NCBI GenBank assembly: GCA_964500725.1
Contig: CAZCNP010000003.1
Coordinates: forward strand, 59,476-123,475
Direction: 5' to 3'
DNA from: an uncultured Gammaproteobacteria bacterium
GTDB lineage: Bacteria > Patescibacteriota > Microgenomatia > Daviesbacterales > UBA10151
Length of the DNA stretch: 64,000 bases
Positions 116 through 57,224 of this stretch are shown in pieces. The stretch's first letter is position 1. Each line of letters opens with the position of its first letter. A program made the position numbers and the translations under genes. The notes under the pieces are model-generated. The model was given only the letters and a program-made list of their open reading frames with translations, was not told the origin of the DNA and made no database searches.

Positions 116-439
116 ATGCATGGACTGACTTTCCAGTATTATCAAACTATTTATTCAATTTCTTTAAAAAGCAAAAAGTATCAGATAGGGAAACAAGGAT
201 ATGTCTATCATAAAATTAAAGAGCCAATCTTTTATAACCAGCTAGGTCTTATCAGTAATGGTAGATATACCATAGCGGATAAAGAACGCACTATCACAGA
301 TTGCCTTTATGTATTCCCAGGGATTGCCTTTGATAATTTAGAAGGGATTGACAAAGACAAACTGCTCACTTTATCTAAGATATATGATAATAAAAGACTA
401 GAAAAAGAGGTAAAAAAACTCATCACCTATGCTGGATAA
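116..439 (+). CDS. Putative AbiEi-like antitoxin/regulator, short form, partner of the downstream AbiEii gene
   Basis: 107-aa ORF overlaps the start of the downstream DUF1814 gene by 11 nt, a TA-like arrangement. It carries a 'TIADKERTITDCL' segment that resembles the conserved C-terminal motif of AbiEi antitoxins. The N-terminus may lie upstream of or beyond the window start. Confidence 0.4.
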   Translation: MHGLTFQYYQTIYSISLKSKKYQIGKQGYVYHKIKEPIFYNQLGLISNGRYTIADKERTITDCLYVFPGIAFDNLEGIDKDKLLTLSKIYDNKRLEKEVKKLITYAG

Positions 440-1103
440 AACAAGACACGAACAAATCTTAAAAAATATTTTAAAGGATATTTATACCAGTACTGAACTT
501 GAGGACAAATTTGCTTTAAAAGGTGGCACATGTTTGTATTTATTCTATAACCTGGACCGTTTTTCAGTTGATTTAGACTTTAATTTAATTGCAGAAGATT
601 TTAATGACAAGAAGCTAAACAGAATTATCAGCGAGCATCTCACCATCGATGATTTTAGAAATAAATATTTTACCTGGATCTTTTTGGGAAGTTATGAAAA
701 AGGGCAACGGAAAATCAAAATAGAAATAAACAAAAGAAATTATCCTGATAAATACACTAACAGAGATTTTTATGGCATTACAATCCCCACATTATCGCCT
801 GAGTGTATGTTTGCACACAAACTTTGCGCTATTGCTGACAGAAAAAAGCTGCAGAACAGAGATTTATATGATGCCCATTTTATGTTTAATAAACAGTTTG
901 ATATCAGTGAGGAGATAATTAAAATACGCACAGGTAAAACATTGAAGGAATATTTTGCTTATTTAGTTCTGTTTATTGAAAAAAAAGCCAACCCTGAACA
1001 TATCTTAGACGGACTGGGAGAACTTTTAAATGACGCGCAAAAAAACCATGTAAAAACCACCCTAGTGAGGAACTTACTATTTGATCTTAAATCACGCATA
1101 TAA
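429..1103 (+). CDS. AbiEii/DUF1814-family nucleotidyltransferase (type IV TA / abortive-infection toxin)
   Basis: N-terminal 'LKGGTCLYLFYNLDRFSVDLDF' matches the GGTAL...R.S.DLDF signature of AbiEii/DUF1814 nucleotidyltransferases. Length is 224 aa. Confidence 0.75.
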   Translation: MLDKTRHEQILKNILKDIYTSTELEDKFALKGGTCLYLFYNLDRFSVDLDFNLIAEDFNDKKLNRIISEHLTIDDFRNKYFTWIFLGSYEKGQRKIKIEINKRNYPDKYTNRDFYGITIPTLSPECMFAHKLCAIADRKKLQNRDLYDAHFMFNKQFDISEEIIKIRTGKTLKEYFAYLVLFIEKKANPEHILDGLGELLNDAQKNHVKTTLVRNLLFDLKSRI

Positions 1104-1117
1104 AATTTTTTGAGGGG

Positions 1118-1147
1118 TTGACAAGGTTTTTAGACTATGCATATTAT
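1118..1147 (+). promoter_or_regulatory. Candidate sigma70-like promoter for the pilin gene
   Basis: TTGACA at 1118-1123 and TATTAT at 1142-1147 are separated by an 18-nt spacer. They lie just upstream of the ATG at 1155 with a very short leader. Confidence 0.35.
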
Positions 1148-1154
1148 TAATTAG

Positions 1155-1538
1155 ATGAAAAAATTAGCAGTTGTAGGCTCTACTATTACAGCTTTATTAA
1201 CACCTATTCAGGTATTGGCACAGGATATAGACATCAAACCTCCCACTCAAGGTTATAGAGATTTGGGACCTTTTATTACCAATCTAATAAGTTTGGCCTT
1301 TATAATTGCCTTGATTCTAGTATTAGTTATGATTATCTGGGGAGCACTTGAATGGATCACTTCAGGCGGAGACAAAGAAAACGTTGGTAAAGCCAGAGGT
1401 AAAATTATTAATGCTTTAATAGGCTTGGCTGTTTTAGCAGTAGCCTTTGCTTTGTTTAGGTTTGCTGGCCAATTCTTAGGATTTAATGTTGGTACTGGAG
1501 GAAGCACGATTAGCCTACCTATACCAAAGCCTAACTAA
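1155..1538 (+). CDS. VirB2/TrbC-like pilin candidate (type IV secretion/pilus subunit)
   Basis: 127 aa with an N-terminal signal peptide followed by two long hydrophobic helices split by a 'TSGGDKENVGKARGK' loop. This is the typical T4SS pilin architecture. The next ORF is a paralog. Confidence 0.5.
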   Translation: MKKLAVVGSTITALLTPIQVLAQDIDIKPPTQGYRDLGPFITNLISLAFIIALILVLVMIIWGALEWITSGGDKENVGKARGKIINALIGLAVLAVAFALFRFAGQFLGFNVGTGGSTISLPIPKPN

Positions 1539-1606
1539 TTTAAGTTCAAAAACTCATTGATCTTCAAAGATATTAGTGGTAAGTTAGAAGATATCTCAAA
1601 ACTCAA

Positions 1607-2032
1607 ATGTCAAAACTGTTAATCATATTTTTTACTTTTTCCTTTTTACTTTTTACCCCTACTTCCCCTGTTTATGCAGTCTGCGACCCTAATGCGCCTA
1701 TCGATAAAAGAAGCGCTGATTGTCCTGCAGGACTTGATCAATTTGAAGCCATGGTTGGACAACTTGTTTTTGTGATTGTAGGACTAGGGTTTATTGCCAC
1801 CCTAGTTATGCTAGTTATGGCTGGGTTTAAATACTTAACATCTGGGGGAGAACCTAAAGCTATCCAAGCTGCCCACCAAACTGCCACCTGGGCTCTTTTA
1901 GGAATACTATTTATGGCTGTTGCCTGGGTGCTCTTGCAACTAATCCAAGGGTTTACAGGAATTCAAGTTACAATATTTGATATTAAAGCTTTGTGCGGTG
2001 TTACTGGAGATCCATTGAAATTCTGTAAATAG
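1607..2032 (+). CDS. VirB2/TrbC-like pilin candidate, tandem paralog
   Basis: 141 aa with a signal peptide (…PVYA) and two hydrophobic helices separated by a 'LTSGGEPKAIQAA' loop. It shares the SGG(D/E) loop with the preceding ORF. Confidence 0.5.
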   Translation: MSKLLIIFFTFSFLLFTPTSPVYAVCDPNAPIDKRSADCPAGLDQFEAMVGQLVFVIVGLGFIATLVMLVMAGFKYLTSGGEPKAIQAAHQTATWALLGILFMAVAWVLLQLIQGFTGIQVTIFDIKALCGVTGDPLKFCK

Positions 2033-2081
2033 ATTATTTAAATGTTTTTCCTGAACCTGGTCTTCATATAAGGGAGGCTGG

Positions 2082-3461
2082 TTATATATTGGAATTTCGG
2101 GAACCTTCCTGAAAAAATTCTTTCCCGTTTAGTATCAACCAGGCCCATAATGGTATAAACTCAATTTTCTTACCCTCTATCTTTTTTACATCAGCATAGT
2201 TTTTAGTGAGCACTATTCCCTGATCGAGATTAAACTCACTCAGTCCCTCAACTAATCCCTCTGCCTCCCTATCATGCGGTTGATCGGTATAACTAACGTT
2301 TACAAATGATAAATTCGGGCTCATCACCACAAAATCTATCTCCCTTTTCCCCCTCCAGTAATATACTGCCGGGTTATTCCTCTTAAGCTCCATATAGACT
2401 ATATTTTCAGCGCATTGCCCGATATCCAGACGGGGAAGCGGTATGTTAAAGTTTCGCAACCCATTATCAACAACATAAATTTTTCTTGGCCGTTGAATAT
2501 CCTGAGTCTCTTTAGTTTTATAGGAAAAATGCCTGCTTTCAAAAAAAAGGTATGCTTTCTCGAAGTACTCAAGATATGATTTTACCGCATCCACTGATAA
2601 CTTTTGCGGCCGGCCTAAACTGCTATAGGTATGTGTTCTGGTAAAATCAGACATTATCTGGAGTCCTAGGACTTCTACCTCTTGAGCGTTCCGGATTGCA
2701 TTTGGCTTTAAAACATCACGGCTGATAATATCGGAATAATAAGCTGCTGCCAGTGTTTTTTTCACTTCCTCTTCCGGGGCTAATATAATTTCAGGATAGC
2801 CACCCTCAAACATATAATTTCCCAAATGGTGAAGGATAGTTGACATTCGGCTAAAATTAGCATCCTGAAGACTTTGTAAAGTATCTCCTCTGACATCTAC
2901 TTTGCGCATTAGAAGGTACTCATAAAAATTGAGGGGATATATATCAAGAACCACATTCCTGCCGGTTAACACCGTAGCTGATTCTGACTCAACCAGCGCC
3001 CGCCTGGATCCTGAAAGAATAAATTTGACAGGTTCCTTCCGTTCATACTTTGAAGCTATCCAGCGATTAAAGTCTTTTATTCCCTGAATCTCATCTAAAA
3101 AAAGATATACTTGTCCCTGAGGATCATATGTTTCCAGATAAAAATTATACAGATCATCTAAGAACTTCCATCCCAAGGAAAGATACTGCTGAGCCAAAAT
3201 ATCCTCTAAAAAGAGAAACAAAATGTTTCTAGCAGGAATGGTTTTTTCTTCCAGCAAATGCTTCACCATCTGTTGCATAAGCGTTGATTTTCCTGCCCGC
3301 CTCACACCGGTTAGAATCAGGACGTGGCGAATATCTAAAAGTTTTTTAAGCCTGGAAAGATACTTTTCTCTTGTCACAGTCCCGATCCAACCCCCTTTTT
3401 GAGGGTTAGTAAAATGAGGGTTCCAGGTATCAATTAATTTTTTCAATATTTCAGTATCCAT
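2082..3461 (-). CDS. AAA+ ATPase of the AAA_14/DUF4143 family
   Basis: Walker A 'LILTGVRRAGKSTLMQQ' and Walker B 'LFLDEIQ' are present. The 459-aa size is typical of DUF4143 ATPases. Confidence 0.8.
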   Translation of the reverse strand: MDTEILKKLIDTWNPHFTNPQKGGWIGTVTREKYLSRLKKLLDIRHVLILTGVRRAGKSTLMQQMVKHLLEEKTIPARNILFLFLEDILAQQYLSLGWKFLDDLYNFYLETYDPQGQVYLFLDEIQGIKDFNRWIASKYERKEPVKFILSGSRRALVESESATVLTGRNVVLDIYPLNFYEYLLMRKVDVRGDTLQSLQDANFSRMSTILHHLGNYMFEGGYPEIILAPEEEVKKTLAAAYYSDIISRDVLKPNAIRNAQEVEVLGLQIMSDFTRTHTYSSLGRPQKLSVDAVKSYLEYFEKAYLFFESRHFSYKTKETQDIQRPRKIYVVDNGLRNFNIPLPRLDIGQCAENIVYMELKRNNPAVYYWRGKREIDFVVMSPNLSFVNVSYTDQPHDREAEGLVEGLSEFNLDQGIVLTKNYADVKKIEGKKIEFIPLWAWLILNGKEFFQEGSRNSNI

Positions 3462-3588
3462 GTACTGTATATCTTACATTAAAAATCACAAACCGTCAAG
3501 TATAACTTAAGGTTTATATATAAAACCTTATGATATAGCTTAGGATTTAAGACTTGCAAAGAAAGACTTTTTGGGTTACTGTTAGATT

Positions 3589-5418
3589 ATGTTTGCCCAG
3601 ATCCTTGCCATACTACTTACTACCAGCTACATACTACTAGCCAGTCCTGTATATGCCCAATCTGCAGCTCCTTCTGCAATACAGTCTACCATCTACAGTC
3701 TACCGACTACAGTAAGTCCTACCTCTCCTCTTTATACTGATCTGCTAGTTAATAATCTATTTCACTCCTTCTCTTGTATTGCTTTAGGGCAATCTGTGAT
3801 TGGACAGCCCTGCTTGACTTACCAGGTTACTCAAAATGCCCAGGGAGTGATTCAAAGTGTACCTATGCTTTCCCAAGTTAATACATCCGGAGGAGCTTTA
3901 GGGACAACCACTTCTTTAATTGGAGCATTATATACTCACCCTCCTGTTAGAACTGCTGATTATTTAGCTTCAGTTAGACAAAATTTTGGGATTGTAAAAG
4001 AAGCTAATGCTCAAGTAGTAGGCTCTGGGGCTCAAGTGTTAAATCCTATTTTAAGCCTCTGGCAGGTATCAAGAAATATTTCTTATGTAATTATGATCAT
4101 CATATTCTTAGTAATAGGACTAATGGTGATGTTTAGGAATAAAATTAACCCCCAAACAGTTATCACAGCTCAAGCAGCTTTACCAGGATTGGTAATTGGA
4201 CTGGTGATGATTACTTTTTCCTTCTTTTTTGCTGGTCTTATTTCTGATATGGCCTTTGTGGGAACTAATGTAGTAGGTTATTATTTTGTGGCAGCTGAAG
4301 GAAAATTAAGCGACTCAACTTTTCAAGACCAACTAAACCTATCACAGAAACTATCAGGCGCTAATATTTTAAACATTATGGGTCCACTCACAGGAATCCT
4401 TGATAATGGAGGCATCTTGCACCTTAACAATCTCGGCGGTGATATATCAAGATTTGCCAGCCTAATTTATGATAATTTAAGCAGCGCAGCACAAGGCGCT
4501 ATTCAGATGTTAGTATTTTGGCTCGCTGCTCAATTTATAGCTCCCATTATACCCACTGATGTTAGTACAAGCCCCTGGATGTTAATACTTAAACCAATAG
4601 TCGGCATAGTAGGAGGGGTAGCTGCAAACCTAGCCTTAGCCCCTCTACTGGGTTTATTCTTAAGTTTTGCTGCTGCTTTAGCCTTAGTCTATCAAATGTT
4701 GAAATTATTCTTTAGGTTAATTATGGCCTGGTTAACCATAATATTTTTGACCATTAGCGCTCCGTTCCAGTTCCTTTTTGCTTCTTTACCAGGCAGACAA
4801 GGAATAGCTACCAGCTGGATTTTACAGATGCTAGGTAATATTTTGATATTTCCAGCTGTTATCGCAGTAATTTATTTTGTGGCTTTCTTACTTGGCCCCC
4901 AAAAGTTCAGCGAGAATTGTCCCAAAGACAACTCTAACCCTAACCAGTGTCTAATCAAAATTTCCGCTGCCAACCAAATCAATAATGGATCATTAATATC
5001 TCCTGTATATGCAACTGATGGCAGAGACATTGTTGGAAGTAATGCTTTTCCTTTATTTGGAGGACTTGATTTAAGTTTTATGAGAATATTATTGGCTTTC
5101 GGAGCTTTAATGGCATTACCGAAAATTCCTGATTTAATAGTTAGTGCTGTAGGGAAGGCCGGACAGGCAGGACAAATGATTGGACAAGAAATTATGGCAG
5201 GTACTGGATTTGGTCAAAGATATACTCAAAGACAATTTGGAGCAGGAATTGAAACTGGCCAAGGTGTTATAAAAGGATCCATAGGTGAAACTACTGTTGA
5301 TGCTTATGGTAATGTAGTACTATCAAGGCAAGGAATACTTCGAAGAGGTGTGGGGTCAAGTATTCCATCAGCAGCAGGTGGTGCTAAAGGCGGAGGTAAA
5401 TGGATATGGAAACCATAG
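3589..5418 (+). CDS. VirB6/TrbL-like polytopic membrane protein (T4SS channel candidate)
   Basis: 609 aa with a signal peptide, a ~150-aa extracytoplasmic N-domain, at least 6 predicted TM helices and a Gly-rich C-terminal tail. It sits next to the pilin-like genes. Confidence 0.5.
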   Translation: MFAQILAILLTTSYILLASPVYAQSAAPSAIQSTIYSLPTTVSPTSPLYTDLLVNNLFHSFSCIALGQSVIGQPCLTYQVTQNAQGVIQSVPMLSQVNTSGGALGTTTSLIGALYTHPPVRTADYLASVRQNFGIVKEANAQVVGSGAQVLNPILSLWQVSRNISYVIMIIIFLVIGLMVMFRNKINPQTVITAQAALPGLVIGLVMITFSFFFAGLISDMAFVGTNVVGYYFVAAEGKLSDSTFQDQLNLSQKLSGANILNIMGPLTGILDNGGILHLNNLGGDISRFASLIYDNLSSAAQGAIQMLVFWLAAQFIAPIIPTDVSTSPWMLILKPIVGIVGGVAANLALAPLLGLFLSFAAALALVYQMLKLFFRLIMAWLTIIFLTISAPFQFLFASLPGRQGIATSWILQMLGNILIFPAVIAVIYFVAFLLGPQKFSENCPKDNSNPNQCLIKISAANQINNGSLISPVYATDGRDIVGSNAFPLFGGLDLSFMRILLAFGALMALPKIPDLIVSAVGKAGQAGQMIGQEIMAGTGFGQRYTQRQFGAGIETGQGVIKGSIGETTVDAYGNVVLSRQGILRRGVGSSIPSAAGGAKGGGKWIWKP

Positions 5419-5445
5419 GCTGTTTTTAAAACATTTTTTAATTTG

Positions 5446-8400
5446 CTACCGGCTCATTTTGTTGAACAACCATTTAGCCCTTGTCATCTCTCGTTTTGGA
5501 TCCAGTATGGTTTTTTCCTTAAGCCTTTTATACCATTGTAGCTCTCCCGGATACGCTTCCCCTCCGCCTCCCTCTGTTTCACTAATAAGCCAATCAATAT
5601 ACGCATTAAAGAATTGCTCCTCTGTATGCCTTGCACTGCCAGTATTTCTATCTTTTGCCAAAGCATTTAGTATCTCTACGTTAGGCTTATCGTCTTTGAG
5701 AACTTCCTTATTTTCCAGATTCAAAGCCCCTTGGGCATTTCTGGTGTCTGATTCCATAGTTCTAACCAGCTTCAGCACAGTCCATAATCTATCAAATGAT
5801 TCTAGTACTAAATTCATAAACTCAATTTCAGCGTTATAATCTTTGAATACTCCTGTCTCGTTTTTTTCCAATCTATCCAAGATTTCTTGTATTTTCCCTA
5901 CCCTCTCTGAATTATTAGTTGGTTTTTCAAACAATCCTTCTATACTAAACCCCTTTTCAGAATCAACATGACCAACTAGAGCACCATAAATCATATTACC
6001 AATCTTCATTTGCTCAACCCATTTAGTTATAGCAAATTGACCGGCTAATCTTTGTTCCGACATCTCTCCAACAGGATCTGCAAACATCTCAATTGCTCCT
6101 AAAACCCCTACCTGCCCCCATTGATCTGGCATCGAGGAAACATTCAAGGGCAAATTAGCAAGTTCCGCAGCATAACGTCTCGCAAATCTTTTAGGATTGC
6201 TGGCCACAAACTGTCTCATCCTAATAATAAATCTTGCTATACCGGAATAATCCTCCAAATTGTAACCTGTACGGAATTTAAAGATATTTCCATCTTTGGG
6301 CATGAAAGCCGCATTTAATTCTCTGACAATTCTCCAATGGCTATAGTTTGATGCCTCAACCGCAGCATCCGAAAGAAGTATCTCAGCCTGCTGAGCACCA
6401 GTACCCTCAGGCATATCAGTATCTTTAAGACTAGGCACCCTATTTAGGGTTGGATCCAAAATTAACCGAATATCAGCCAATTTTTCGTGCTGATCCTCCT
6501 CTGATTCCGGCTCTATCATTAAATCCGGCCTCAATAGCCTCATTCTGCGTCTTTTAGCTGCTTGCACAATATCTGGGTTTATAACCTGATGCCTATTTTC
6601 CGGCTGGTAACTTAAGTAGGAATGATTTAACCATTTGTTTAAAGGATTTTCCGGATCTGTAGCAGTCTCAAAATCTATTATTTCTTCCAGATCTCCATCT
6701 AAACCAATAACATCACCAAAATTAGGTGAATTTTTATCCATATCAAACTTAAGTTTCCCAAACTTAAGTTTAGCTTCATAACCATTAGTTTTTAGTTGTT
6801 GGATGGCAACTGCTCTGGCCTGATCAACTGCTTTTGTTCTAACCTCGGCTGAAGAGTTAGCAAACTGGATCTTAATCCTAGTTTCCACATATTGAATAAA
6901 CATCTCTGCCTCATAAACCGGTATATTATCAACAAACCTGCGCCCATTTCCGTCTTTCCTGTCAATAAAGAATACGCCTCCTCCTCTTCTGGCCTTTTCC
7001 CCTGTTGATCCTACCATTTGAAAAGCTGTAGCAAAATTGGCTTTTGAATGATCATATGCTTCCTCCCAAAACTTTTTATCCCTGTCAGTTAGACGTTTCT
7101 GGGCTATTAATTCATCTATTACATCAATAAGCTGATGTTTTTCTTTTCCATCATGAGGAAGCAATAAAGATTGAACTTTTCCAATAATTACCGATTTTCT
7201 AAGGGCGGGCGAAATTGTACGTAACTCGTCGTCATTCCAATCTCTGTATGTTTGATAATTAATTAGATGAGCATTGCCTGAATCAAATCCATTGTATAAA
7301 CTTTTAAACTCTTCCTTTGGTTGGTGAATACCTATTCTTACCAAATTAGCCGCAATGGCTTTCTCTCTGGCTTGCTCAGCCTCCTCCAGCTTCAACACCC
7401 TGATAGAGTTGGAACCGTATGCAGCTGACTCTACATCCCTTGGGTCATAATTTTTCATCACAACACCCATTCCCTCCTCAATCAAAATTCCTTTAATTTC
7501 AGTATGAAGGTAGTGTTGAGTAACAGTGTCATTTAGTAATTGCCCTCTTGATCCGCCTGGGTTATGCATCAGTTTAATCCTTGGATCATAATCAAATTTC
7601 CATAAATACGCACCAACCGCACCATTACCTGATCTGGCAACCCGTATCCATCTATCGGGGCCTTCGTCCATAGCCATCGCCATCAAAAACTGATGAGCAC
7701 TACTCATATTATAGGTTTCAAATGAATAATCGCCCCCAAATACAAACCCATGACCTTGTAGCTCTTGTCTTAATGCTGTACTAAACCCCTCATCCATATT
7801 TTCTGAAGTGGCTGCTTGACCAACCATTTGTGTAAAATTGTTGAAATGCTCGTAAAGCTCGTTAGGAGATTTACCCAAACGGCCTCCTGTTACCGCACTT
7901 AAGAAGCTATCAACTGCTCTACGAAACTGCTTTGGTGTTTTGGCAAGGATTTCATATGTTTTGGGCCAATGTCCAGGCCTCCAATGAGTTTGTGTGTCAC
8001 CTTCATCATCTATATTCTCACTAACACTAAATTCGCCTTCTATAGGATCAGGCCTCTCACCAGTAAGCATTCTCTCAAGAATATCGCAGGTTCGCTGACT
8101 ATAAGCCTCGGCAATTCCACGCAATGGAGCTGCTCGAGGATCTGTTCTGCGACTCCTTAAAAGCGCTTCAATACTCCCTCTAGCAAAATCCCTAACCCTT
8201 GTTAATTCTTCTTCTACTTGCTGCGGAGGGATATTGCCCTGAGTAATTTGTTTATAAAAGGAAGTAAAAAGGGCATCTGCTCTATCAAGTAAGCCAAAAT
8301 TTCTGGCCTCCTTAAACCAAGTAGCCATATCAACTTCAACCGTTTCTGTATTAGCATCATCTGCGTATTTCTCGAATAATACATTTAGTGATTCTGCAGG

Positions 8401-9123
8401 TAGGACTACCGGTCGCTCGCCTCGATCTCTCTGATTAATTCCAAGCTGATTAGTTTCTGATGATTCTCCTCTAGCTCTCCTCTCTAGCGCTTCTTTTATT
8501 TTATTATATATTCTCCTCGGATCCCAAGGATCCTGTTCGTCTCTTATATTTCTTACCCTGCGAAGTGCCCTGGTGTAATCTTGTAGATCTGCATAGAGTT
8601 GATCTAGGTAAGGACCATTTCTTTCATTATATATTTCAGGCTTGCCAACTGTAGATAGCAAACCACTCACCGTGCGATATCTCTCGGTGTAAGGTAGAGT
8701 TGTTTCCAACCTAAGAATCTCCCTAACAATTGCCCTGCCTCTTTCTGGACTGGTTTCCCATTCTGGACCTCTTTCTGGACCGTTCGGAGATTCTGGACCT
8801 CTTAGCCTATCACCCTCACCACCAACGGCTCCTTGCACAGGTAAGTCATCCTCATCTGACCCTCCGCCTATGTCAGGCATTATTCTTGCTACTTCTTTAC
8901 CAGTTAACGGATCAATAAAGCTAGTTTGACCTCCTTTAAGCGGATTGCTTGTATATTCCTTCGCCCTTCTCGGATCATATCCTTCTAAAGGAAGAAATCT
9001 TTGTCTTAGAACAGAGGATTGATGAGGGCCTGTTTCTACTGGTGTATTATGGGCATGCACTCCTTGAGAACCTATTTCTGAAGATAATCCACCTTCTGAC
9101 ATATTTATTTCTATTCTAGCCAT
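5446..9123 (-). CDS. Large hypothetical protein (1225 aa), no recognisable domain
   Basis: Long uninterrupted ORF with no TM segments and no Walker motifs. The N-terminal region is low-complexity with PERGPE-like repeats encoded by four TTCTGGAC(C) copies at 8743-8799. Confidence 0.7.
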   Translation of the reverse strand: MARIEINMSEGGLSSEIGSQGVHAHNTPVETGPHQSSVLRQRFLPLEGYDPRRAKEYTSNPLKGGQTSFIDPLTGKEVARIMPDIGGGSDEDDLPVQGAVGGEGDRLRGPESPNGPERGPEWETSPERGRAIVREILRLETTLPYTERYRTVSGLLSTVGKPEIYNERNGPYLDQLYADLQDYTRALRRVRNIRDEQDPWDPRRIYNKIKEALERRARGESSETNQLGINQRDRGERPVVLPAESLNVLFEKYADDANTETVEVDMATWFKEARNFGLLDRADALFTSFYKQITQGNIPPQQVEEELTRVRDFARGSIEALLRSRRTDPRAAPLRGIAEAYSQRTCDILERMLTGERPDPIEGEFSVSENIDDEGDTQTHWRPGHWPKTYEILAKTPKQFRRAVDSFLSAVTGGRLGKSPNELYEHFNNFTQMVGQAATSENMDEGFSTALRQELQGHGFVFGGDYSFETYNMSSAHQFLMAMAMDEGPDRWIRVARSGNGAVGAYLWKFDYDPRIKLMHNPGGSRGQLLNDTVTQHYLHTEIKGILIEEGMGVVMKNYDPRDVESAAYGSNSIRVLKLEEAEQAREKAIAANLVRIGIHQPKEEFKSLYNGFDSGNAHLINYQTYRDWNDDELRTISPALRKSVIIGKVQSLLLPHDGKEKHQLIDVIDELIAQKRLTDRDKKFWEEAYDHSKANFATAFQMVGSTGEKARRGGGVFFIDRKDGNGRRFVDNIPVYEAEMFIQYVETRIKIQFANSSAEVRTKAVDQARAVAIQQLKTNGYEAKLKFGKLKFDMDKNSPNFGDVIGLDGDLEEIIDFETATDPENPLNKWLNHSYLSYQPENRHQVINPDIVQAAKRRRMRLLRPDLMIEPESEEDQHEKLADIRLILDPTLNRVPSLKDTDMPEGTGAQQAEILLSDAAVEASNYSHWRIVRELNAAFMPKDGNIFKFRTGYNLEDYSGIARFIIRMRQFVASNPKRFARRYAAELANLPLNVSSMPDQWGQVGVLGAIEMFADPVGEMSEQRLAGQFAITKWVEQMKIGNMIYGALVGHVDSEKGFSIEGLFEKPTNNSERVGKIQEILDRLEKNETGVFKDYNAEIEFMNLVLESFDRLWTVLKLVRTMESDTRNAQGALNLENKEVLKDDKPNVEILNALAKDRNTGSARHTEEQFFNAYIDWLISETEGGGGEAYPGELQWYKRLKEKTILDPKREMTRAKWLFNKMSR

Positions 9124-9271
9124 ATCATTCCTTTCCTAGGAAATTCTATGACTAATTCCAGCATAGAACTTCCGAAATTAAATGTCAAAACATTTGCATC
9201 TTAGCAGTCAATTACAAAATGCGCTTGATTTAAAACTGAGAAAATCCTGACAATATTAGTGCTAAATTATG

Positions 9272-9604
9272 TTATGCAGCTTTCTGAAAAAAAGGCCTTG
9301 ATATAGAAATCATCCCTTTTGTACGACATTGACGGCCAGGGTGCACACCTCGATAACATTCAGGACATCTAGGTCTTCTCATTTTTTTTCTTCTTAACCT
9401 CTCTTTTCCTCTATCATCACCTATTGATAATAAATTGCTTTTTGTAACCTCTTGGTCAACCCCCACTCTATAAGGAAGCTTTTCTTCTTTTACATATGCA
9501 ATCAAATCTGTATTGAATCTGGGAATAAGTGGCGATACAATGCCGCAACTAACTGGCAATTTTATTAATTCTTGAGCAGCTTGAGGAATAATTTCTTTTG
9601 TCAT
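9272..9604 (-). CDS. Small basic protein with a C-terminal zinc-ribbon-like CPEC…C motif
   Basis: 110-aa ORF lying between the 1225-aa and 581-aa genes on the same strand. Its C-terminus reads 'RRKKMRRPRCPECYRGVHPGRQCRTKG'. Confidence 0.4.
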   Translation of the reverse strand: MTKEIIPQAAQELIKLPVSCGIVSPLIPRFNTDLIAYVKEEKLPYRVGVDQEVTKSNLLSIGDDRGKERLRRKKMRRPRCPECYRGVHPGRQCRTKGMISISRPFFQKAA

Positions 9605-9658
9605 ACCAACTTTATAACAAAAGTGTATGATATCCTACCTTTTTTAAAATGACAATAA

Positions 9659-11404: not shown

Positions 11405-11445
11405 CCTTAGTCAAGACACCTATTCATAAGGTTGCTTAGTGAGGG

Positions 11446-12126: not shown

Positions 12127-12320
12127 ATTAGAAACTCAAATAATCTTTTTCTTGAAGGCTCAAGATTTAGATCATGCCAATGTTTTTTAACTTCTTTTAG
12201 ATCAATTTTTTCTTTATCAGAAGGATAAATCCCATAATTAATTTGTCTTTCTAAAATAAGCAGTCTGCCGCTTTTGGTTTTCTTTAACTTGTTAATATCA
12301 TAATCCCAGATAAAAGGCAT
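12114..12320 (-). CDS. Putative cognate antitoxin/partner of the AbiEii gene (68 aa)
   Basis: It overlaps the upstream end of the AbiEii gene by 13 nt on the same strand. No recognisable motif was found. Confidence 0.3.
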   Translation of the reverse strand: MPFIWDYDINKLKKTKSGRLLILERQINYGIYPSDKEKIDLKEVKKHWHDLNLEPSRKRLFEFLIWGK

Positions 12321-12484
12321 ATTAAAATTATACCACTTTTCCGTAGAAGTTTTGGAAATTTATGAACCATTATACTAAATAGGTATATTTATCTAGTTTC
12401 ATCCAGAATAGTTGAGATTGCCCATAAATGACCTAGTTTGTACCTCTAGACTATAGTTTTTTCACGAGGTATAAAGGGGATAAC

Positions 12485-13504: not shown

Positions 13505-13507
13505 ATT

Positions 13508-14245: not shown

Positions 14246-14248
14246 TTT

Positions 14249-16006: not shown

Positions 16007-16021
16007 TGATAAGTTAAACTT

Positions 16022-19724: not shown

Positions 19725-20176
19725 TCCGTTTCTTTTCTGGCAGAAACAAACCTATGAACTTCTTCTTCAGTCACCTTAATCAATCTAAAGTTAACCCTTC
19801 CTGAAACAATAAGATTTTTAATATGTTTTTCCTCCTCTGTCAAGATATGGAAACTGCCTGATTTAACTTCAATAAAATCAATTCGTTCATTATTTTTAAT
19901 CCCTATAAAATCAATTGGCCAACCCAAAGGGATAATCCGGTCGTAGTCATAGCGAAGCTCAGCGTAAGTTAAAAGCTCAGCCATTTTACCTTTTTGTGGA
20001 TTAATAGATCCTTGAATAGTTTGTAAAACCTTTGTTGGCAAATCTTGTACCCCTCTGTAAAGATCAATCAAATCTGTAGGAATATCTGTTTTCCCTTTAC
20101 CGTGAAGCCGACCTAGAAGATATGCAACTAAGAGTACCAATCCTAAGATCCCAGTTATCCACCAATTTATCTCCAT
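19721..20176 (-). CDS. Membrane-anchored PD-(D/E)xK nuclease-like protein inserted between dnaA and dnaN
   Basis: An N-terminal TM helix is followed by 'ELRYDYD…IDFIGI…IDFIEVKSG', an E…D…ExK pattern like YraN/NERD-type nuclease cores. Confidence 0.4.
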   Translation of the reverse strand: MEINWWITGILGLVLLVAYLLGRLHGKGKTDIPTDLIDLYRGVQDLPTKVLQTIQGSINPQKGKMAELLTYAELRYDYDRIIPLGWPIDFIGIKNNERIDFIEVKSGSFHILTEEEKHIKNLIVSGRVNFRLIKVTEEEVHRFVSARKETE

Positions 20177-20348
20177 TGTTGTAGATTATACTCTATCTTT
20201 TAAAATAGTAGTTATATTAATATGCTTGGTGGATATGTTGGTAAGTGCAAAATTCAGCTTCATTTTTTGGTAAATTTTCGTGTTTACAGCCTGTTTACAG
20301 ATAGTGGATAAATTGTGGAAAACTACCACAAGCTTGTGGATAAGTTGC
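20177..20348. promoter_or_regulatory. Candidate oriC, DnaA-box cluster plus an AT-rich stretch
   Basis: A perfect TGTGGATAA lies at 20335-20343, AGTGGATAA at 20303-20311 and TGTGGAAAA at 20314-20322. TGTTTACAG occurs twice at 20281-20300. An AT-rich segment spans 20190-20230. Confidence 0.55.
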
Positions 20349-21692
20349 TCAATTTATCATGCGCTGTTTTACCTCGGTTAACATTCTTTGCACTTCCCTA
20401 TCTGTGCTGACTAGTTTTTTCATCTTATCCCTGCCATGCATGATGGTAGTATGATCTCTGCCACCCAAGATCTGGCCGATTTTTTCCACAGTCAGTCTAA
20501 GTTCCTCAGACAAAAGATACATGGTAAGATGGCGAGGCAGCACCAGCTCTTTTTGTCTTTTGGGTCCAGTCAGATCTTTTAAGCTGACATCAAAAAAGGC
20601 GCAGATGGAAGATAAAACTTGTTTATGATCAGAAATAACAGGTTTTTTAGCAACTTTGCCTAAATAGTTGGCAATATTTTCTGGATCAGTGGATAGGTTT
20701 TGAGCTTTGAGAGCTTGAAGTATTTGTATTAGTTTTCCCTCCAGCTCTCTGGTATTTGATTCCAGAGAAGAGGCAATTAGTTTGAGTGAATCTTCAGGCA
20801 GTGTGGTGCCTTGTTGTATGCACTTTGCTCTTAAAATTGCCACTCTAGTGTCAAAATCAGGCTGTTGGATATCAATCATTAGCCCCCCAGCAAAACGGCT
20901 TTTGAGTCTGTCTTCCAGTTTAGCAATCTCTTGTGGGGGTCTATCTGAGGTTAAAATCATCTGAGAGTTTTTAGATTGCAGATCATTGAAAGTATGGAAA
21001 AATTCTTCCTGAGTTCCTTCCCTGCCAGAGAAAAACTGAATATCATCTATAAGTAAAATATCAGCCATTCTATATCTTCTCCTTAAATCCCCCATTTTGT
21101 GCTCTTGGATGGCTGCCACATAATCATTCATAAACTTTTCTGAAGAACAATAGATTACCTTTAAATTTTTTTTCTTGGCCAGCAAAGCATTACCAATACC
21201 TAACATTAGATGAGTTTTACCAACTCCTGTTCCCCCATATAAAAATAAAGGATTGTAGCTCATGCCAGGGTTTTGAATTACAGCCTGAGCTGCAGCATAA
21301 GCCACATTATTAGAAGGTCCCACCACAAAATTTTCCAAAGTATATCTAGGATTTAAAACAGCGGATACAGTTTGGGCTGGTTGAAAAAAACTGTCTTCAT
21401 CTTCTTGAGTATTTTGTTCTGAGGCTTCTATTTCTTTGACAATAAATTCTACTTTAATTTCCCTGCCCAATAGCTCAGAAAAGGTCTTCTCTATTAAAGG
21501 AAGATGTTTTTGGTTTAATGTTTCTTTGGCAAAAGCATGAGGAGTGGAAATTATGATTTTATCTTCCTCTAATGATTTAAGTAGAGTTCTAGAAAAGAAA
21601 GTTTTGAAGTTAGCAGTGCCAATTGTAGGTTTTATTATTTCTAAAAATTTGTGCCAGAGGCGTAGGTTGTCCATTGTGGATAAGTTATCCAC
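20349..21692 (-). CDS. dnaA: Chromosomal replication initiator protein DnaA
   Basis: Walker A 'GGTGVGKTHL' with AAA+ and C-terminal DNA-binding regions. The ORF as listed begins with GTG; an ATG seven codons in may be the true start. Confidence 0.9.
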   Translation of the reverse strand: MDNLSTMDNLRLWHKFLEIIKPTIGTANFKTFFSRTLLKSLEEDKIIISTPHAFAKETLNQKHLPLIEKTFSELLGREIKVEFIVKEIEASEQNTQEDEDSFFQPAQTVSAVLNPRYTLENFVVGPSNNVAYAAAQAVIQNPGMSYNPLFLYGGTGVGKTHLMLGIGNALLAKKKNLKVIYCSSEKFMNDYVAAIQEHKMGDLRRRYRMADILLIDDIQFFSGREGTQEEFFHTFNDLQSKNSQMILTSDRPPQEIAKLEDRLKSRFAGGLMIDIQQPDFDTRVAILRAKCIQQGTTLPEDSLKLIASSLESNTRELEGKLIQILQALKAQNLSTDPENIANYLGKVAKKPVISDHKQVLSSICAFFDVSLKDLTGPKRQKELVLPRHLTMYLLSEELRLTVEKIGQILGGRDHTTIMHGRDKMKKLVSTDREVQRMLTEVKQRMIN

Positions 21693-21693
21693 A
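21675..21693. promoter_or_regulatory. Inverted pair of perfect DnaA boxes at the dnaA 5' end
   Basis: TGTGGATAA at 21675-21683 and TTATCCACA at 21685-21693 are both perfect consensus 9-mers, consistent with autoregulation or an origin element. Confidence 0.55.
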
Positions 21694-21771: not shown

Positions 21772-22173
21772 ATGACAAGCAGCAACCTAGATGAAAAAAA
21801 ATTAGCAAACATATTTAAACTCTTACCTGCAGTTAAACTGGTTTATTTTTTCGGTTCCAAAGCTTTGGGGAAAGAAGGGCCTTTAAGTGATTATGATTTT
21901 GCAGTGTATTTAGATGAACAGGACGCTAAGAAAAGGTTCCAAACCAGAATGGAACTTCTGGGTAAATTATCCATAAGTTTAGGTACTGATAAAATAGATT
22001 TGTCTGTTTTGAATGATATTGAACGCCCTGAGTTAAAATACTCTATCATTACCAGCGGTCATGTAATCTACGAACGGGAACCGTTTAAGATCTTACTTGA
22101 ACCCAAAATCCTTAACGAATATTTTGATTTTATGGATGGTTTAAAGAGGTTTGGATTGACAAGAAACATATGA
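21772..22173 (+). CDS. MNT-type nucleotidyltransferase antitoxin
   Basis: 'FFGSKALGKEGPLSDYDFAVYL' gives the GS…DxD minimal nucleotidyltransferase motif. It overlaps the downstream HepT gene by 4 nt. Confidence 0.7.
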   Translation: MTSSNLDEKKLANIFKLLPAVKLVYFFGSKALGKEGPLSDYDFAVYLDEQDAKKRFQTRMELLGKLSISLGTDKIDLSVLNDIERPELKYSIITSGHVIYEREPFKILLEPKILNEYFDFMDGLKRFGLTRNI

Positions 22174-39847: not shown

Positions 39848-40135
39848 ATGCAAAGAGTAATTGTTCAGGTTCCTATGTCTAAAGAATTGAAAAGATCAGC
39901 AGAAGTGGTTTCTGCTGATTTGGGATTTTCCTCCATTCAGGAAACAATCCGGGTGCTTTTGACTAAACTTTCCAAAAGAGAATTTAGTTTGAAAGTTGAG
40001 GAGGTTGAAGAAATAACTCATCTTTCTCCTGCTACTGAGAAGAAGTTTAAAAAAGCAGTTGCAGATATAAAAGCTGGAAGAAATATTACACAAGCTAAAA
40101 ACATTGATGAACTTTTATCTCTCCTGCATTCATGA
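39848..40135 (+). CDS. Putative antitoxin of the downstream RelE/ParE-like toxin
   Basis: 95 aa, overlapping the toxin gene by 4 nt. Confidence 0.5.
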   Translation: MQRVIVQVPMSKELKRSAEVVSADLGFSSIQETIRVLLTKLSKREFSLKVEEVEEITHLSPATEKKFKKAVADIKAGRNITQAKNIDELLSLLHS

Positions 40136-40410
40136 AAGTTCAATTTACTCATGATTTCATCAAGATTTTTAAAAAAAGATTTTCTTCCAAACCTAACATT
40201 CACAAGAAATTTGATGAACGAGTAAAAAAGTTTGCTGAAAATCCAGACGATCCAATTCTGCTCGATCATGCATTAGGTGGTAGATTACAAGGCCACAGAG
40301 CGTTTTCCATAACTGGAGATGTTAGAGTGGTGTATTATGTCTTTGAAGATACAGCCTATTTTGTGGATATTGGTACCCATAATCAACTAAACAAAAATTT
40401 GTGTGGCTAG
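40132..40410 (+). CDS. RelE/ParE-superfamily toxin (type II TA)
   Basis: 92 aa. '…LQGHRAFSITGDVRVVYYVFEDTAYFVDIGTHNQL' fits the RelE/YafQ-like C-terminal pattern (…RiiY.v.d…i..igtH…). Confidence 0.65.
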   Translation: MKVQFTHDFIKIFKKRFSSKPNIHKKFDERVKKFAENPDDPILLDHALGGRLQGHRAFSITGDVRVVYYVFEDTAYFVDIGTHNQLNKNLCG

Positions 40411-43547: not shown

Positions 43548-43569
43548 AAATTCTTATCTGGGTATAAGT

Positions 43570-52462: not shown

Positions 52463-52882
52463 TTAATTTGAATCTAATATTTGCTGGGGTTTTTTAACTA
52501 CAATTTCCTTGATTTTGGAAAATTCCTCATCAAAAGTTATTAAAATAGTATCTTTTGACAATTGGGAAGCAATCAAGCAGTCTGTAAATTTGATTCCATA
52601 TTTCTTATAATTTGCCAAAGCTTGCTTAGTATTAGTTTTTTCAACAATTGTGATGCCTCTGATTTCAAATGTGGAGTCTAAAATTTTGATTATTTCTTGG
52701 TAAGGGATCTTATAAACACTTTTTAGCACATAACTCATTTCCAAAAAGACAATCCCAGAGGTATAGACGCTAAATTGACCTGCCTCTATTTGAGATATTA
52801 GCTTATGACAATCTTCAAACTGTTGGTTATTATCTTCCAAAAATAATCTAAGCAGAAAATTAGTATCTAAAAATATTTTCAT
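52463..52882 (-). CDS. vapC: PIN-domain toxin VapC
   Basis: 'MKIFLDTNFLLRLF' gives the PIN acidic-residue pattern. Length is 139 aa and it overlaps the upstream antitoxin by 4 nt. Confidence 0.7.
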   Translation of the reverse strand: MKIFLDTNFLLRLFLEDNNQQFEDCHKLISQIEAGQFSVYTSGIVFLEMSYVLKSVYKIPYQEIIKILDSTFEIRGITIVEKTNTKQALANYKKYGIKFTDCLIASQLSKDTILITFDEEFSKIKEIVVKKPQQILDSN

Positions 52883-55034: not shown

Positions 55035-55049
55035 GTTTGAGGTATAATT

Positions 55050-56372
55050 GTGAAGGCTACTATGAAAAAGATTATCATCATTGTTTTATCTATAAGCATT
55101 GTTTTGGGTTTTATCATCTGGAAATTTGGGCCCAATATCTCCCTTTTTAATAAGCCTAAACCTGCTGGTCCAATAACCTTAACTTATTGGGGTTTATGGG
55201 AAGATGATAATTTAATAAAGCCGGTAATAGCTGCATACCAGCAGCAAAATCCTAATATCACCATTAACTACGAGCGTAAATCTTCAGTAAATTACAGAAC
55301 CAGGGCCCAGACTCAAATTAGAGAAGGAGTAGGGCCGGATGTTTTTAGAATTCATAATTCCTGGTTGCCTATGTTTATTGCTGATCTGGCTCCTGCTCCA
55401 CAGGATATTTTTACAATAACAGACTATAAAAATCTTTTTTATCCGGTAGCTGCTGATAGTTTTACTTCTGGCAACCAAATTTATGGCGCGCCAATGGAGG
55501 TAGATGGTTTGGCTCTTTTTTACAATGAAGAGATGTTGGCAGGGATTGGAGGTAAGCCGCCTAAAAACTGGCAGGAATTTATTGACCTTTCTACTAAAAT
55601 GACAGTAAAAGATGCCACTGGTATTCAAACCGCAGGAGCAGCTTTAGGGACTGCCTCAAATGTTGATCACTGGTCTGATATTTTGGGGCTGTTGCTTTTT
55701 CAGCAGCCAGGAGTGGATTTCAATAATTTAGCCACAACCCAAGTTGCTGAAATTTTTAGCTTTTATACCGGATTTGTGATAGATCCTAGAAAAAAGACCT
55801 GGGATGTGAATTTGCCTAAGTCGACAGATATGTTTGCTGCAGGCAGATTAGGTTTTTACTTTGCTCCTTCTTGGAGGGCTCATGAGTTAAGGATTACTAA
55901 TCCAAACTTGAAGTTTAAAGTGGCACCAGTGCCTCAGCTTCCTGGAAAAACTGTAGGTTGGGCAACGTTTTGGGGAGAGGTTGTTTCTTCGAGATCTCAA
56001 AATGTGTCAGAGGCCTGGAAGTTTGTTAAGTTTCTGACATCTGCGGAGACAGAAAGATTAGCTTACCAGCAAGCTTCTCAAATCAGATTATTTGGTGAGC
56101 CTTATTCTCAGGTTAGTCTTGGGTCAGAGCTTGCTGCTGACCCAATAGTGGGGGCATTTGTGACTCAAGGGCCAAATTATAAATCCTGGTATTTATCTTC
56201 TAGCACTTTTGACAATGGTATAAATGATGAAACGATCAAATATTTTGAAGATGGGATAAATGCCACTTTGGCAGGAACAGATCCCCAAGCTGCTTTGCAA
56301 ACAGTAGATCAAGGGGTAAAACAAGTCCTGGATAAATATACCAGATCTGTACCTACGCCAAGTTCCAGATAA
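55050..56372 (+). CDS. ABC transporter extracellular solute-binding protein (family 1, sugar-type)
   Basis: An N-terminal anchor/signal is followed by 'ITLTYWGLWEDDNLIKPVIAAYQQQNPNITINYER', typical of SBP_bac_1. Length is 440 aa. Confidence 0.7.
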   Translation: MKATMKKIIIIVLSISIVLGFIIWKFGPNISLFNKPKPAGPITLTYWGLWEDDNLIKPVIAAYQQQNPNITINYERKSSVNYRTRAQTQIREGVGPDVFRIHNSWLPMFIADLAPAPQDIFTITDYKNLFYPVAADSFTSGNQIYGAPMEVDGLALFYNEEMLAGIGGKPPKNWQEFIDLSTKMTVKDATGIQTAGAALGTASNVDHWSDILGLLLFQQPGVDFNNLATTQVAEIFSFYTGFVIDPRKKTWDVNLPKSTDMFAAGRLGFYFAPSWRAHELRITNPNLKFKVAPVPQLPGKTVGWATFWGEVVSSRSQNVSEAWKFVKFLTSAETERLAYQQASQIRLFGEPYSQVSLGSELAADPIVGAFVTQGPNYKSWYLSSSTFDNGINDETIKYFEDGINATLAGTDPQAALQTVDQGVKQVLDKYTRSVPTPSSR

Positions 56373-56395
56373 GCAAACTGTGGTAAAATACACTT

Positions 56396-56677
56396 ATGCA
56401 AAAACAGATTTTAAATTACAGAATTATTATTGAACCAGAAAAAATAGGCAAAAAAATTGTCTATAATGCCTATTGCCCAACTTTGGGGCTTGCTGATTAT
56501 GGAGATACTATTGATGAAGCATTCAAAAATATTCAATCATTAGTAAAATTCCATATAGAGAGTTTGTTAAAAGATGGTTTGGAAGTGCCAAGCGAGAATA
56601 CTGAGGAAGAAGTAATTACTTCTACCAAAGTATCCATTAATTCTGCAGGCGAGAATTATCAAGTCGTAGTCGGATGA
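56396..56677 (+). CDS. hicB: HicB-family antitoxin
   Basis: 93 aa and UPF0150-like ('YNAYCPTLGLADYGDTIDEAFKNI'). It overlaps HicA by 4 nt. Confidence 0.6.
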   Translation: MQKQILNYRIIIEPEKIGKKIVYNAYCPTLGLADYGDTIDEAFKNIQSLVKFHIESLLKDGLEVPSENTEEEVITSTKVSINSAGENYQVVVG

Positions 56678-56895
56678 CAAAATTATTTCAAGTTAGACCA
56701 AAAGATTTAGTTAAAGCATTGGAAAAAGCAGGATTTACAAAGAACCGTCAAAGTGGCAGCCATCTTTATCTAAAGCATCCTGACGGTAGATTAACTTCTG
56801 TTTCAATTCATCCTAAACCTGTTCCAACAGGAACTCTGCGGGCTATTTTAAAACAAACACAATTAAAACCAGATGAGCTAAAGAAGTTATTGTAG
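56674..56895 (+). CDS. hicA: HicA-family mRNA interferase toxin
   Basis: 'KDLVKALEKAGFTKNRQSGSHLYLKHPDGRLTSV' is the HicA/YcfA signature. Length is 73 aa. Confidence 0.75.
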   Translation: MTKLFQVRPKDLVKALEKAGFTKNRQSGSHLYLKHPDGRLTSVSIHPKPVPTGTLRAILKQTQLKPDELKKLL

Positions 56896-56900
56896 TAACT

Positions 56901-57224
56901 ATGTTCAAAATTGTTATCTTTGTGCCTATAAAAGATGCCCAAAAAGTTAGAAAAGCTATGGGAGATGCAGGAGCAGGGGTGTTGGGAAATTATACCCATG
57001 CTTCTTTTTCTACAAAAGGAATTGGTAGGTTTTTGCCTCAAGAGGGTGCTCATCCAGCAATTGGAAAGCTAGGAGAGCTTGCAGAGGTGGAAGAAGAAAG
57101 AATAGAAGTAATTTGCCAGAAAGAAAAAGTAAAAGAAGTAATAGCTGCAATTAAGGCAAATCATCCATATGAAGAGGTGCCTTTAGAAGTTTACCAATTA
57201 GTAGGTGAAGAGGAGTTAAACTAA
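56901..57224 (+). CDS. Small PII/CutA-like protein (uncertain family)
   Basis: 107 aa with a C-terminal 'HPYEEVPLEV' reminiscent of CutA-type HPYEVPE. The N-terminus does not match CutA well. Confidence 0.35.
   Translation: MFKIVIFVPIKDAQKVRKAMGDAGAGVLGNYTHASFSTKGIGRFLPQEGAHPAIGKLGELAEVEEERIEVICQKEKVKEVIAAIKANHPYEEVPLEVYQLVGEEELN

Follow-up and report, generated by a model that had tools for sequence, protein, structure and literature searches.

The genes considered here belong to well-described families of two-gene toxin–antitoxin (TA) systems. AbiE of Streptococcus agalactiae and Lactococcus is presented in PMC8080830, after Dy et al. (2014), as a type IV TA and abortive-infection system. 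The antitoxins that accompany MenT/AbiEii toxins are diverse (PMC11375011). MntA–HepT, a type VII TA system, is represented by proteins of Shewanella oneidensis (5yep, 6m6u) and Aphanizomenon (7ae2-7ae9); phage P1 Doc (3k33), YafQ/DinJ of Escherichia coli, HP0894/HP0895 of Helicobacter pylori, VapBC and HicAB provide the remaining points of comparison. Here we describe seven TA modules of these families in a 64-kb stretch of contig CAZCNP010000003.1 (hereafter the window), which flanks the replication origin (oriC) of a Candidatus Daviesbacteria chromosome. Our reading, to which we assign a probability of roughly 75%, is that seven independent two-gene modules were inserted singly into variable slots between conserved housekeeping and type IV secretion system (T4SS)-like genes.

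At the level of whole genomes, bacteria of the Candidate Phyla Radiation (CPR) have the highest density of defence systems per Mb, with Microgenomatia above the average, and in CPR genomes first-line systems such as AbiE are not confined to islands (PMC12259885). AbiE ranks with the most frequent defence systems (PMC11375011, PMC12259885), and its occurrence in CPR bacteria is on record (PMC8080830). Abortive-infection and TA genes were reported by Burstein et al. from CPR lineages without CRISPR (PMC4742961), and in Patescibacteria defence genes are enriched among horizontally acquired genes (PMC12455944).

Listing and translation of the open reading frames (ORFs) showed a gene-dense window with a mean GC content of 0.373. 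The seven modules are AbiEi/AbiEii, a 68-aa protein with a second AbiEii, MNT/HepT, an AbrB-type protein with Doc, a RelB-like protein with a YafQ-like toxin, VapBC and HicBA:

1..439, + strand: AbiEi antitoxin, C-terminal part, the gene being cut by the window start (ORF listed as 116-439, frame open to base 1)
429..1103, + strand: AbiEii nucleotidyltransferase toxin #1 (DUF1814); Pfam AbiEii 92.4 bits (cut-off 22.5), PADLOC AbiEii 188.4 bits
11446..12126, − strand: AbiEii-family nucleotidyltransferase toxin #2; Pfam AbiEii 65.3 bits, best PADLOC AbiEii model 45.8 bits
12114..12320, − strand: 68-aa helical partner of AbiEii #2, distantly DUF6922-like, presumed antitoxin
21772..22173, + strand: MNT (MntA-like) nucleotidyltransferase antitoxin; Pfam Polbeta 67.6 bits, NTP_transf_2 38.7 bits
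22170..22589, + strand: HepT (HEPN) RNase toxin; Pfam HepT-like 109.3 bits
35794..36207, − strand: Doc (Fic-fold) toxin; Pfam Fic 65.8 bits
36183..36422, − strand: AbrB/MazE-type antitoxin of Doc, 79 aa, within ORF 36183-36629; Pfam MazE_antitoxin 36.3 bits
39848..40135, + strand: 95-aa putative RelB/DinJ-like antitoxin
40132..40410, + strand: YafQ/RelE-superfamily toxin (HP0894-like); Pfam YafQ_toxin 41.1 bits (cut-off 30)
52463..52882, − strand: VapC PIN-domain toxin; Pfam PIN 56.7 bits
52879..53118, − strand: VapB antitoxin (AbrB/MazE type), overlapping VapC by 4 nt; Pfam MazE_antitoxin 31.6 bits
56396..56677, + strand: HicB-like antitoxin, 93 aa; Pfam HicB_lk_antitox 26.0 bits (slightly short of the cut-off, 27)
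56674..56895, + strand: HicA toxin, overlapping HicB by 4 nt; Pfam HicA_toxin 70.1 bits

The initial annotation of the window had called seven TA or abortive-infection modules from motifs, and every one was found in its place with Pfam support. All seven toxins (the two AbiEii proteins, HepT, Doc, the YafQ-like protein, PIN and HicA) score above Pfam gathering thresholds, as do MNT and the two MazE/AbrB-type antitoxins; NCBIfam returned nothing for most partners and for the small ORFs of no family. The genes of each pair overlap, by 4 nt in four pairs and by 11, 13 and 25 nt in the others, and are presumably translationally coupled. The GC content of each module (0.303–0.367) lies below the window mean. 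Toxins lacking their catalytic residues had been named as a possible refutation of the call; alignments to solved homologues (for AbiEii #2, to #1), or direct reading of the sequence, showed intact catalytic motifs in all seven.

Module 1 shares with AbiE both components, the overlapping antitoxin gene upstream and the nucleotidyltransferase motifs. The full AbiEi gene (L002:1022-1600) encodes 192 aa, and PADLOC AbiEi matches it at 126.6 bits over 179 residues; a difference from AbiE is that this partner goes unrecognised at threshold by Pfam and NCBIfam (TAA_AbiEi, 19.9 bits). When AbiEii #1, whose gene overlaps that of AbiEi by 11 nt, was aligned to 4o8s, the motifs GGT..DLDF and KLCA..RDLYD were conserved. 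The identical gene was recovered in the same context in nine contigs from independent sequencing runs.

The second AbiEii protein is 26% identical to the first, with GGT, DLDF and KL..I..R...D..D.YF aligned between the two; it has no sequence match in the Protein Data Bank (PDB). Its gene overlaps by 13 nt that of a 68-aa partner, for which no match at E<=0.01 was obtained in Pfam, NCBIfam or PADLOC, nor any AbiEi match in these libraries. Since the partner is a 68-aa helical protein lacking an AbiEi match, we file this module as an AbiEii/MenT-family toxin with a different type of antitoxin rather than as AbiE. The partner belongs to a family of 216 proteins of 66–69 aa, in which 19 positions are invariant across 22 homologues and the motif reads WDYD...G..LILER.INYG...IWG. 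Similarity to DUF6922 is detectable below threshold in 12 of the 22 members (best E 1e-3). The partner gene is followed by an overlapping AbiEii gene in all three contexts seen (the window, L091:6001-6848 and L092:6001-6869), and these contexts are unrelated: beside rnc, beside an rve transposase and beside T4SS genes. An AlphaFold2 model of the partner consists of four helices (predicted local distance difference test, pLDDT, 76); Foldseek found no match to this model in the PDB, and the family profile had no PDB match either.

Module 2 thus combines DUF1814 nucleotidyltransferase motifs with a conserved, overlapping upstream partner, the features by which we recognise a MenAT-like pair. Like MenAT of Mycobacterium tuberculosis, it joins a DUF1814 nucleotidyltransferase to a small, mostly helical partner that is not AbiEi, and this partner echoes MenA1, which touches MenT1 through one helix; it differs in lacking detectable similarity to any solved structure. 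The 68-aa protein is probably an uncharacterised type of antitoxin for DUF1814 toxins.

In MNT/HepT the gene order, MNT then HepT, and the motifs GSX10DXD and RX4HXY are those of MntA–HepT, to which the sequence is only distantly related (E 5e-16). The GSX10DXD motif of MNT reads GSKALGKEGPLSDYD by direct sequence reading. In HepT, RX4HXY is conserved against Shewanella HepT 5yep, RNIIAHDY being aligned to LRNIAVHDY with the modifiable Tyr included. The two genes overlap by 4 nt. A further difference from the described systems is the position of the pair, which has been inserted beside DnaA boxes in the dnaA–rpmH interval, with MNT starting 79 nt from the dnaA start codon. The same sequence in the same context was found in 10 contigs from independent runs. 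This recurrence, like that of the first AbiE module, argues against an assembly artefact.

The Doc toxin shares the Fic motif HxFxDGNKR with phage P1 Doc: in the alignment to 3k33, HPFLDGNKRT is intact against HIFNDANKRT. The gene upstream, which overlaps the toxin gene, encodes an antitoxin of AbrB/MazE type and not Phd/YefM as in Phd/Doc; this is a known alternative pairing. The NCBIfam model doc_partner (TIGR02609) matches the antitoxin at 41.4 bits, under its cut-off of 55.9.

The three remaining modules share toxin folds and catalytic residues with YafQ/DinJ, HP0894/HP0895, VapBC and HicAB, each with the antitoxin gene upstream. In the YafQ-like toxin the histidines of DHAL and IGTHNQL are conserved against HP0894 (4ls4/1z8m). 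Its gene is overlapped by 4 nt by that of the 95-aa partner, which matches no family in Pfam, NCBIfam or PADLOC and so differs from DinJ in being unclassified by the family libraries; its N-terminus weakly resembles the Pfam-RelB-positive partner of a YafQ-like toxin in a related locus, L110 (pairwise E 0.008). VapC carries the acidic residues D6, E48, D101 and D118 by direct sequence reading and has no PDB sequence match. HicA, aligned to 1whz, conserves the G-x-H histidine (GSH against GGH). The match of the HicB-like protein spans profile positions 1-65 of 123, the N-terminal half, and the Pfam scan recognised no DNA-binding domain in it. In the hicAB operon of E. coli, HicA comes first; here the order is reversed, with HicB before HicA. 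In the spacer that separates the YafQ-like toxin gene from the following Schlafen-like gene (see below) lies a perfect 42-nt tandem repeat of 2.2 copies (40496-40587). The copy of this region on contig JACQIW010000012.1 (L001) has one 42-nt unit fewer, its sole difference from the window over 21 kb.

Toxins of the HepT, YafQ, VapC and HicA families cut RNA and Doc phosphorylates EF-Tu, as is well established, and by homology to characterised members the proteins encoded here would do the same. The two AbiEii/MenT-family nucleotidyltransferases may modify tRNA 3' ends, as MenT does (PMC11375011, PMC10435456). By the same analogy with homologues, AbiEi would neutralise its toxin by binding or by induced phosphorylation, MNT would neutralise HepT by AMPylating the Tyr of RX4HXY, and the other antitoxins would act by tight binding. 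Should the antitoxin supply fail, for example after a phage-induced shut-off, the toxins would arrest growth; such an arrest could provide protection of the abortive-infection type and would also make the cassettes hard to lose. A defence role of the modules is plausible, defence and plain addiction being inseparable on the present data.

The window is the oriC-flanking part of the chromosome of a Candidatus Daviesbacteria member (Microgenomates, CPR), a groundwater bacterium with a tiny genome. Its TsaD is encoded identically on contig JACQIW010000012.1 (GCA_016198315.1), whose proteins are named 'Candidatus Daviesbacteria bacterium' at NCBI, and the TsaD homologues that are 64–79% identical to it belong to CPR genomes of Microgenomates type, on contigs of 0.8–1.15 Mb. 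The features that define the origin are the following:

18609–19724, − strand: dnaN
19721-20176, − strand: 151-aa protein between dnaA and dnaN; hydrophobic segment at the N-terminus, Endonuc_Holl domain (archaeal Holliday-junction-resolvase-like, 33.4 bits)
20155..21693, no strand: DnaA-box clusters flanking dnaA; the oriC context that defines 'origin-proximal', not part of the TA set
20349–21692, − strand: dnaA
22834–22971: rpmH

The window's three perfect DnaA boxes (TTATCCACA, at 20335, 21675 and 21685) all lie here, with four one-mismatch boxes clustered at 20155–20322 beside the perfect box at 20335, and the cumulative GC skew reaches its minimum at ~19–22 kb. The dnaA–dnaN pair, the three perfect boxes and the skew minimum together indicate that the window spans oriC, and the origin-proximal location proposed in the initial annotation stands. 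The Endonuc_Holl protein is kept between dnaA and dnaN in 24 of 26 loci of relatives. Several short-read contigs from independent runs (Logan contigs L147 and L150) stop ~50 nt upstream of the MNT gene (window ~21720), and these ends coincide with the start of dnaA, where the two perfect DnaA boxes lie in divergent orientation; population heterogeneity or an assembly break at oriC may be the cause.

Other backbone genes of the window include rnpA, yidD, yidC, jag, cell-envelope genes, valS, tsaD, ahcY, murB and groES/groEL, together with the T4SS-like cluster of pilins and a VirB4-like ATPase at 1.1-18.6 kb. This cluster (1155-18612; L002:278-958) adjoins oriC and comprises three pilin-like genes, a 609-aa polytopic membrane protein, the VirB4-like ATPase and a 702-aa secreted protein. 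The first AbiE pair sits within the pilin gene array, and a DUF4143 ATPase gene comes after the pilins. T4SS_pilin genes are frequent near dnaA in other CPR genomes too (11 of 148 small ORFs).

We compared the TsaD-centred loci of five relatives (L086–L090; 72–77% TsaD identity). The backbone order rnpA–yidD–yidC–jag–wzy–flippase–RNase H–DUF4012–transporter–L25–valS–tsaD … PDDEXK … LigT … VanW–groES is mostly kept in all five, less completely in L089, and what lies upstream of tsaD varies by genome:

L086 (complete genome, 820,589 bp): nothing upstream of tsaD; no TA module elsewhere in 21 kb
L087: MazE and Doc upstream of tsaD, as in the window
L088: upstream of tsaD a 445-aa gene of no family, then a type I restriction–modification (R-M) system with a KAP NTPase
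L089: other genes upstream of tsaD, including VapBC; elsewhere MazEF, a Phd-type pair and an AAA_14 ATPase
L090: other genes upstream of tsaD; elsewhere a Phd/PIN pair

Two genes that stand among the TA modules look like backbone rather than defence cargo despite their position, because they are kept in relatives. For a PD-(D/E)XK nuclease (PDDEXK_1, 63.8 bits; 36480-37406, + strand) this applies to four of the five, at tsaD or close to it; for a LigT-type 2H phosphoesterase (38046-38606, − strand), to two.

Scanning metagenomes with DnaN recovered 52 related loci (51–81% identity); the 26 that reach 6 kb or more, together 404.5 kb, were analysed. Homologues of window backbone genes account for 302 of the 449 ORFs in these dnaN-centred loci, and the backbone genes located from 12.5 to 27.7 kb are each present in 14–26 of the 26. 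Pfam scans of the 119 remaining small ORFs found no AbiEii, MNT, HepT, Fic, PIN or HicA in any of them. The 18 families that were found include MazE (twice), RelB (twice), DUF433 (twice), DUF5615 (once) and Gp49 with HTH. The commonest non-backbone small-ORF families near oriC (loci L097-L145) are 23S_rRNA_IVP (6) and bAvd-like (4), both four-helix-bundle proteins, and DUF5678 (3); none of these three occurs in the window.

The slot between rpmH/rnpA and dnaA, which holds MNT/HepT in the window (21693-22970), is a recurrent insertion site. The rnpA–dnaA gap measures 219–541 nt in 12 of the relatives' loci and 0.9–2.1 kb, with unrelated cargo, in 7. The expanded slots (L099, L105, L109/L119, L115, L132 and L143) contain Clp_N-like proteins of 423-429 aa, DUF433 and DUF5615, as well as an overlapping pair of a 148-aa aspartyl-protease-like protein and a 63-aa protein. 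A 91-aa ORF of no family in the window slot (22602-22877) may be spurious.

Four nucleoside triphosphatase (NTPase) genes of families common in defence neighbourhoods, two for DUF4143 AAA ATPases and two for AlbA_2/HATPase_c_4 proteins, had also been listed in the initial annotation, and all are present by Pfam, as stand-alone genes:

2082..3461, − strand: AAA_14 + DUF4143 ATPase #1; Pfam 105.2 + 65.6 bits, PADLOC PDC-S01 310.4 bits
40594..42192, − strand: SLFN_AlbA_2 + HATPase_c_4 protein #1 (Schlafen-like); Pfam 70.4 + 50.4 bits, partial PADLOC PDLC02394 (prokaryotic Argonaute, pAgo) 55.3 bits
43570..45123, + strand: SLFN_AlbA_2 + HATPase_c_4 protein #2 (Schlafen-like); Pfam 50.5 + 49.8 bits, PADLOC pAgo model 80.9 bits
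46226..47407, − strand: AAA_14 + DUF4143 ATPase #2; Pfam 115.9 + 67.0 bits, PADLOC PDC-S01 202.8 bits

Both DUF4143 ATPases match the PADLOC candidate PDC-S01 strongly and over their full length, which makes them candidate defence genes. The Schlafen-like proteins have the domain pair of the Schlafen/AlbA_2–HATPase_c_4 proteins of defence neighbourhoods; PDLC02394 is matched only in part. The two DUF4143 ATPases are 23% identical to each other, and the two Schlafen-like proteins have just one 52-aa block in common. At 23–26% identity, or with one short block shared, the paralogous pairs of the window (the two AbiEii toxins included) represent separate acquisitions, and recent duplication is ruled out by the 23–26% identity. 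In L090 no Schlafen-like protein stands next to ahcY on the side covered by its locus.

With seven modules in 64 kb, the window has 10.9 per 100 kb. The homologous regions of relatives contain ~13 TA-like loci in 503 kb, or ~2.6 per 100 kb (Poisson P ~0.002 for at least seven), and the oriC regions of 19 other CPR genomes ~3 modules in 355 kb, or ~0.8 per 100 kb (Poisson P ~2e-6); these P values err on the optimistic side, as they ignore the over-dispersion of the counts that L089 illustrates. The other CPR loci came from a DnaA scan whose matches (35–42% DnaA identity) lay in other phyla and other CPR, with no close relatives among them, and they served as background only. As phmmer searches with single TA seeds were too insensitive for the background, Pfam scans of all small ORFs were used instead. 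The local excess of TA modules is real and moderate, about fourfold over the relatives' homologous regions. The 'unusually high density' of the initial annotation therefore holds to this extent, and not beyond it, since a locus such as L089 is locally just as dense.

Several observations limit the density excess or weigh against our reading. In L089 three TA modules fall within 21 kb, or 14 per 100 kb locally; two region-matched sub-tests were not significant (P 0.07 and 0.29); and the background counts rest on ORF calling and Pfam scans of ORFs of 55-250 aa, with some redundant contigs included. The partners of 68 aa and 95 aa and the HicB-like protein (26.0 against 27) fall under every curated family threshold. 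As to a role in defence rather than addiction, no PADLOC model matches the classical type II toxins, and the Schlafen-like and DUF4143 proteins are candidate defence genes only. The same sub-tests and the dense tsaD locus of L089 (three TA modules and an AAA_14 ATPase in 21 kb) would be expected if TA density were high throughout the genome and unrelated to the origin, the window being a typical sample of a TA-rich Daviesbacteria genome, and CPR genomes as a class do show a high defence density per Mb (PMC12259885). The low average over the relatives' homologous oriC-proximal regions speaks against such a uniform density, which we consider possible, at odds well short of even. The notion that TA and defence cargo truly concentrates in the slots around oriC, as an insertion hot spot or sink, for instance through high gene dosage near the origin or local recombination, draws on the expanded rnpA–dnaA gaps in 7 of 19 relatives' loci, whose insertions include the TA-like DUF433 and DUF5615, on the genome-specific cargo (Doc, R-M or other) upstream of tsaD, and on the proximity of MNT/HepT to the dnaA start and two perfect DnaA boxes. 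However, bacterial genomes commonly have variable slots between conserved genes throughout, the relatives' contigs include several redundant ones, and the data cover the oriC and tsaD regions; we regard a true hot spot as rather unlikely. Equally doubtful in our view is a broader proposal, in which the oriC slots of Microgenomates (rpmH–dnaA, upstream of tsaD and the T4SS-like cluster) would be recurrent landing sites for TA and defence genes forming a dispersed immune locus, and in which the 68-aa/AbiEii pair would be an uncharacterised MenAT-like subfamily with a new small antitoxin, widespread in Daviesbacteria and Levybacteria.

The presence of pilins and a VirB4-like ATPase at 1.1-18.6 kb, with two AbiE-type modules among them, and the AT-richness of all modules relative to the average could suggest that the modules belong to a single mobile defence island, a prophage or an integrative conjugative element. 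The T4SS-like genes and the genes between the modules nevertheless occur in the same order in relatives, and in other CPR genomes, too, T4SS pilin genes are often neighbours of dnaA. The modules stand 3-16 kb from one another, with housekeeping genes (dnaA, dnaN, rnpA, yidC, valS, tsaD, ahcY, murB) in between, and the window showed neither a tRNA gene nor an integrase or transposase. A single mobile element is accordingly rejected as very improbable, on the backbone synteny with relatives and the lack of an integrase or tRNA gene in the window. A similarly slim chance attaches to the idea that the pairs have no function and are either decaying remnants or chance ORFs, which the three partners lacking a curated family match would favour. 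All seven toxins are full-length, far above gathering thresholds and intact in their catalytic motifs, the 68-aa partner retains its 19 invariant positions over 22 homologues and keeps its gene overlap in different genomes, and identical copies recur in independent samples; intact motifs, conserved partners and this recurrence lead us to reject pseudogenes and chance ORFs. Independent insertion of single modules into a conserved backbone is thus the reading that we retain, with standard TA cassettes that would have been acquired repeatedly into variable slots near the origin. TA genes take up 8% of the window (17% once the four NTPases are added), and, because the modules are scattered singly between conserved genes at such coverage and without integrase or tRNA genes, the window is not a defence island. 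The initial annotation had suggested an accessory or defence region; the TA modules are indeed accessory, as AbiEii, MNT and HepT are absent from the 26 loci and the tsaD slot varies, but the region as a whole consists mostly of conserved housekeeping and T4SS-like backbone.

Four large proteins are also encoded in the window:

5446-9123, − strand: 1225 aa
9659-11404, − strand: 581 aa
47588-52393, + strand: 1601 aa
59275-62031, + strand: 918 aa

The 1225-aa and 581-aa proteins match no Pfam or PADLOC family, and the latter is Cys-rich at its ends. The 1601-aa protein has an HExxH motif and gave no match in a PADLOC scan, the sole library used for it. In L090 a 1558-aa protein with a weak Peptidase_M48 and ABC1 annotation adjoins tsaD.

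The modules are all new members of families already known, and the density pattern has already been published for CPR bacteria. Surveys of the CPR defensome (PMC12259885; PMC4742961; PMC12455944) give the same picture of small genomes with few systems each and the highest density per Mb; they differ from the present analysis in giving no per-region figures and in counting classical type II TA families differently. Because our results agree with these surveys of high CPR defence density, the window illustrates known biology rather than changing it.

An older expectation was that reduced, host-dependent genomes shed TA systems. The window is a counter-example, in which a CPR genome of the ~1-Mb class devotes 8% of its origin region to seven intact TA modules, or 17% with the NTPases, and in which such modules come and go among close relatives. 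Two leads stand out as the most useful: the variable slots beside oriC and the conserved small DUF6922-like partner of the second AbiEii toxin.

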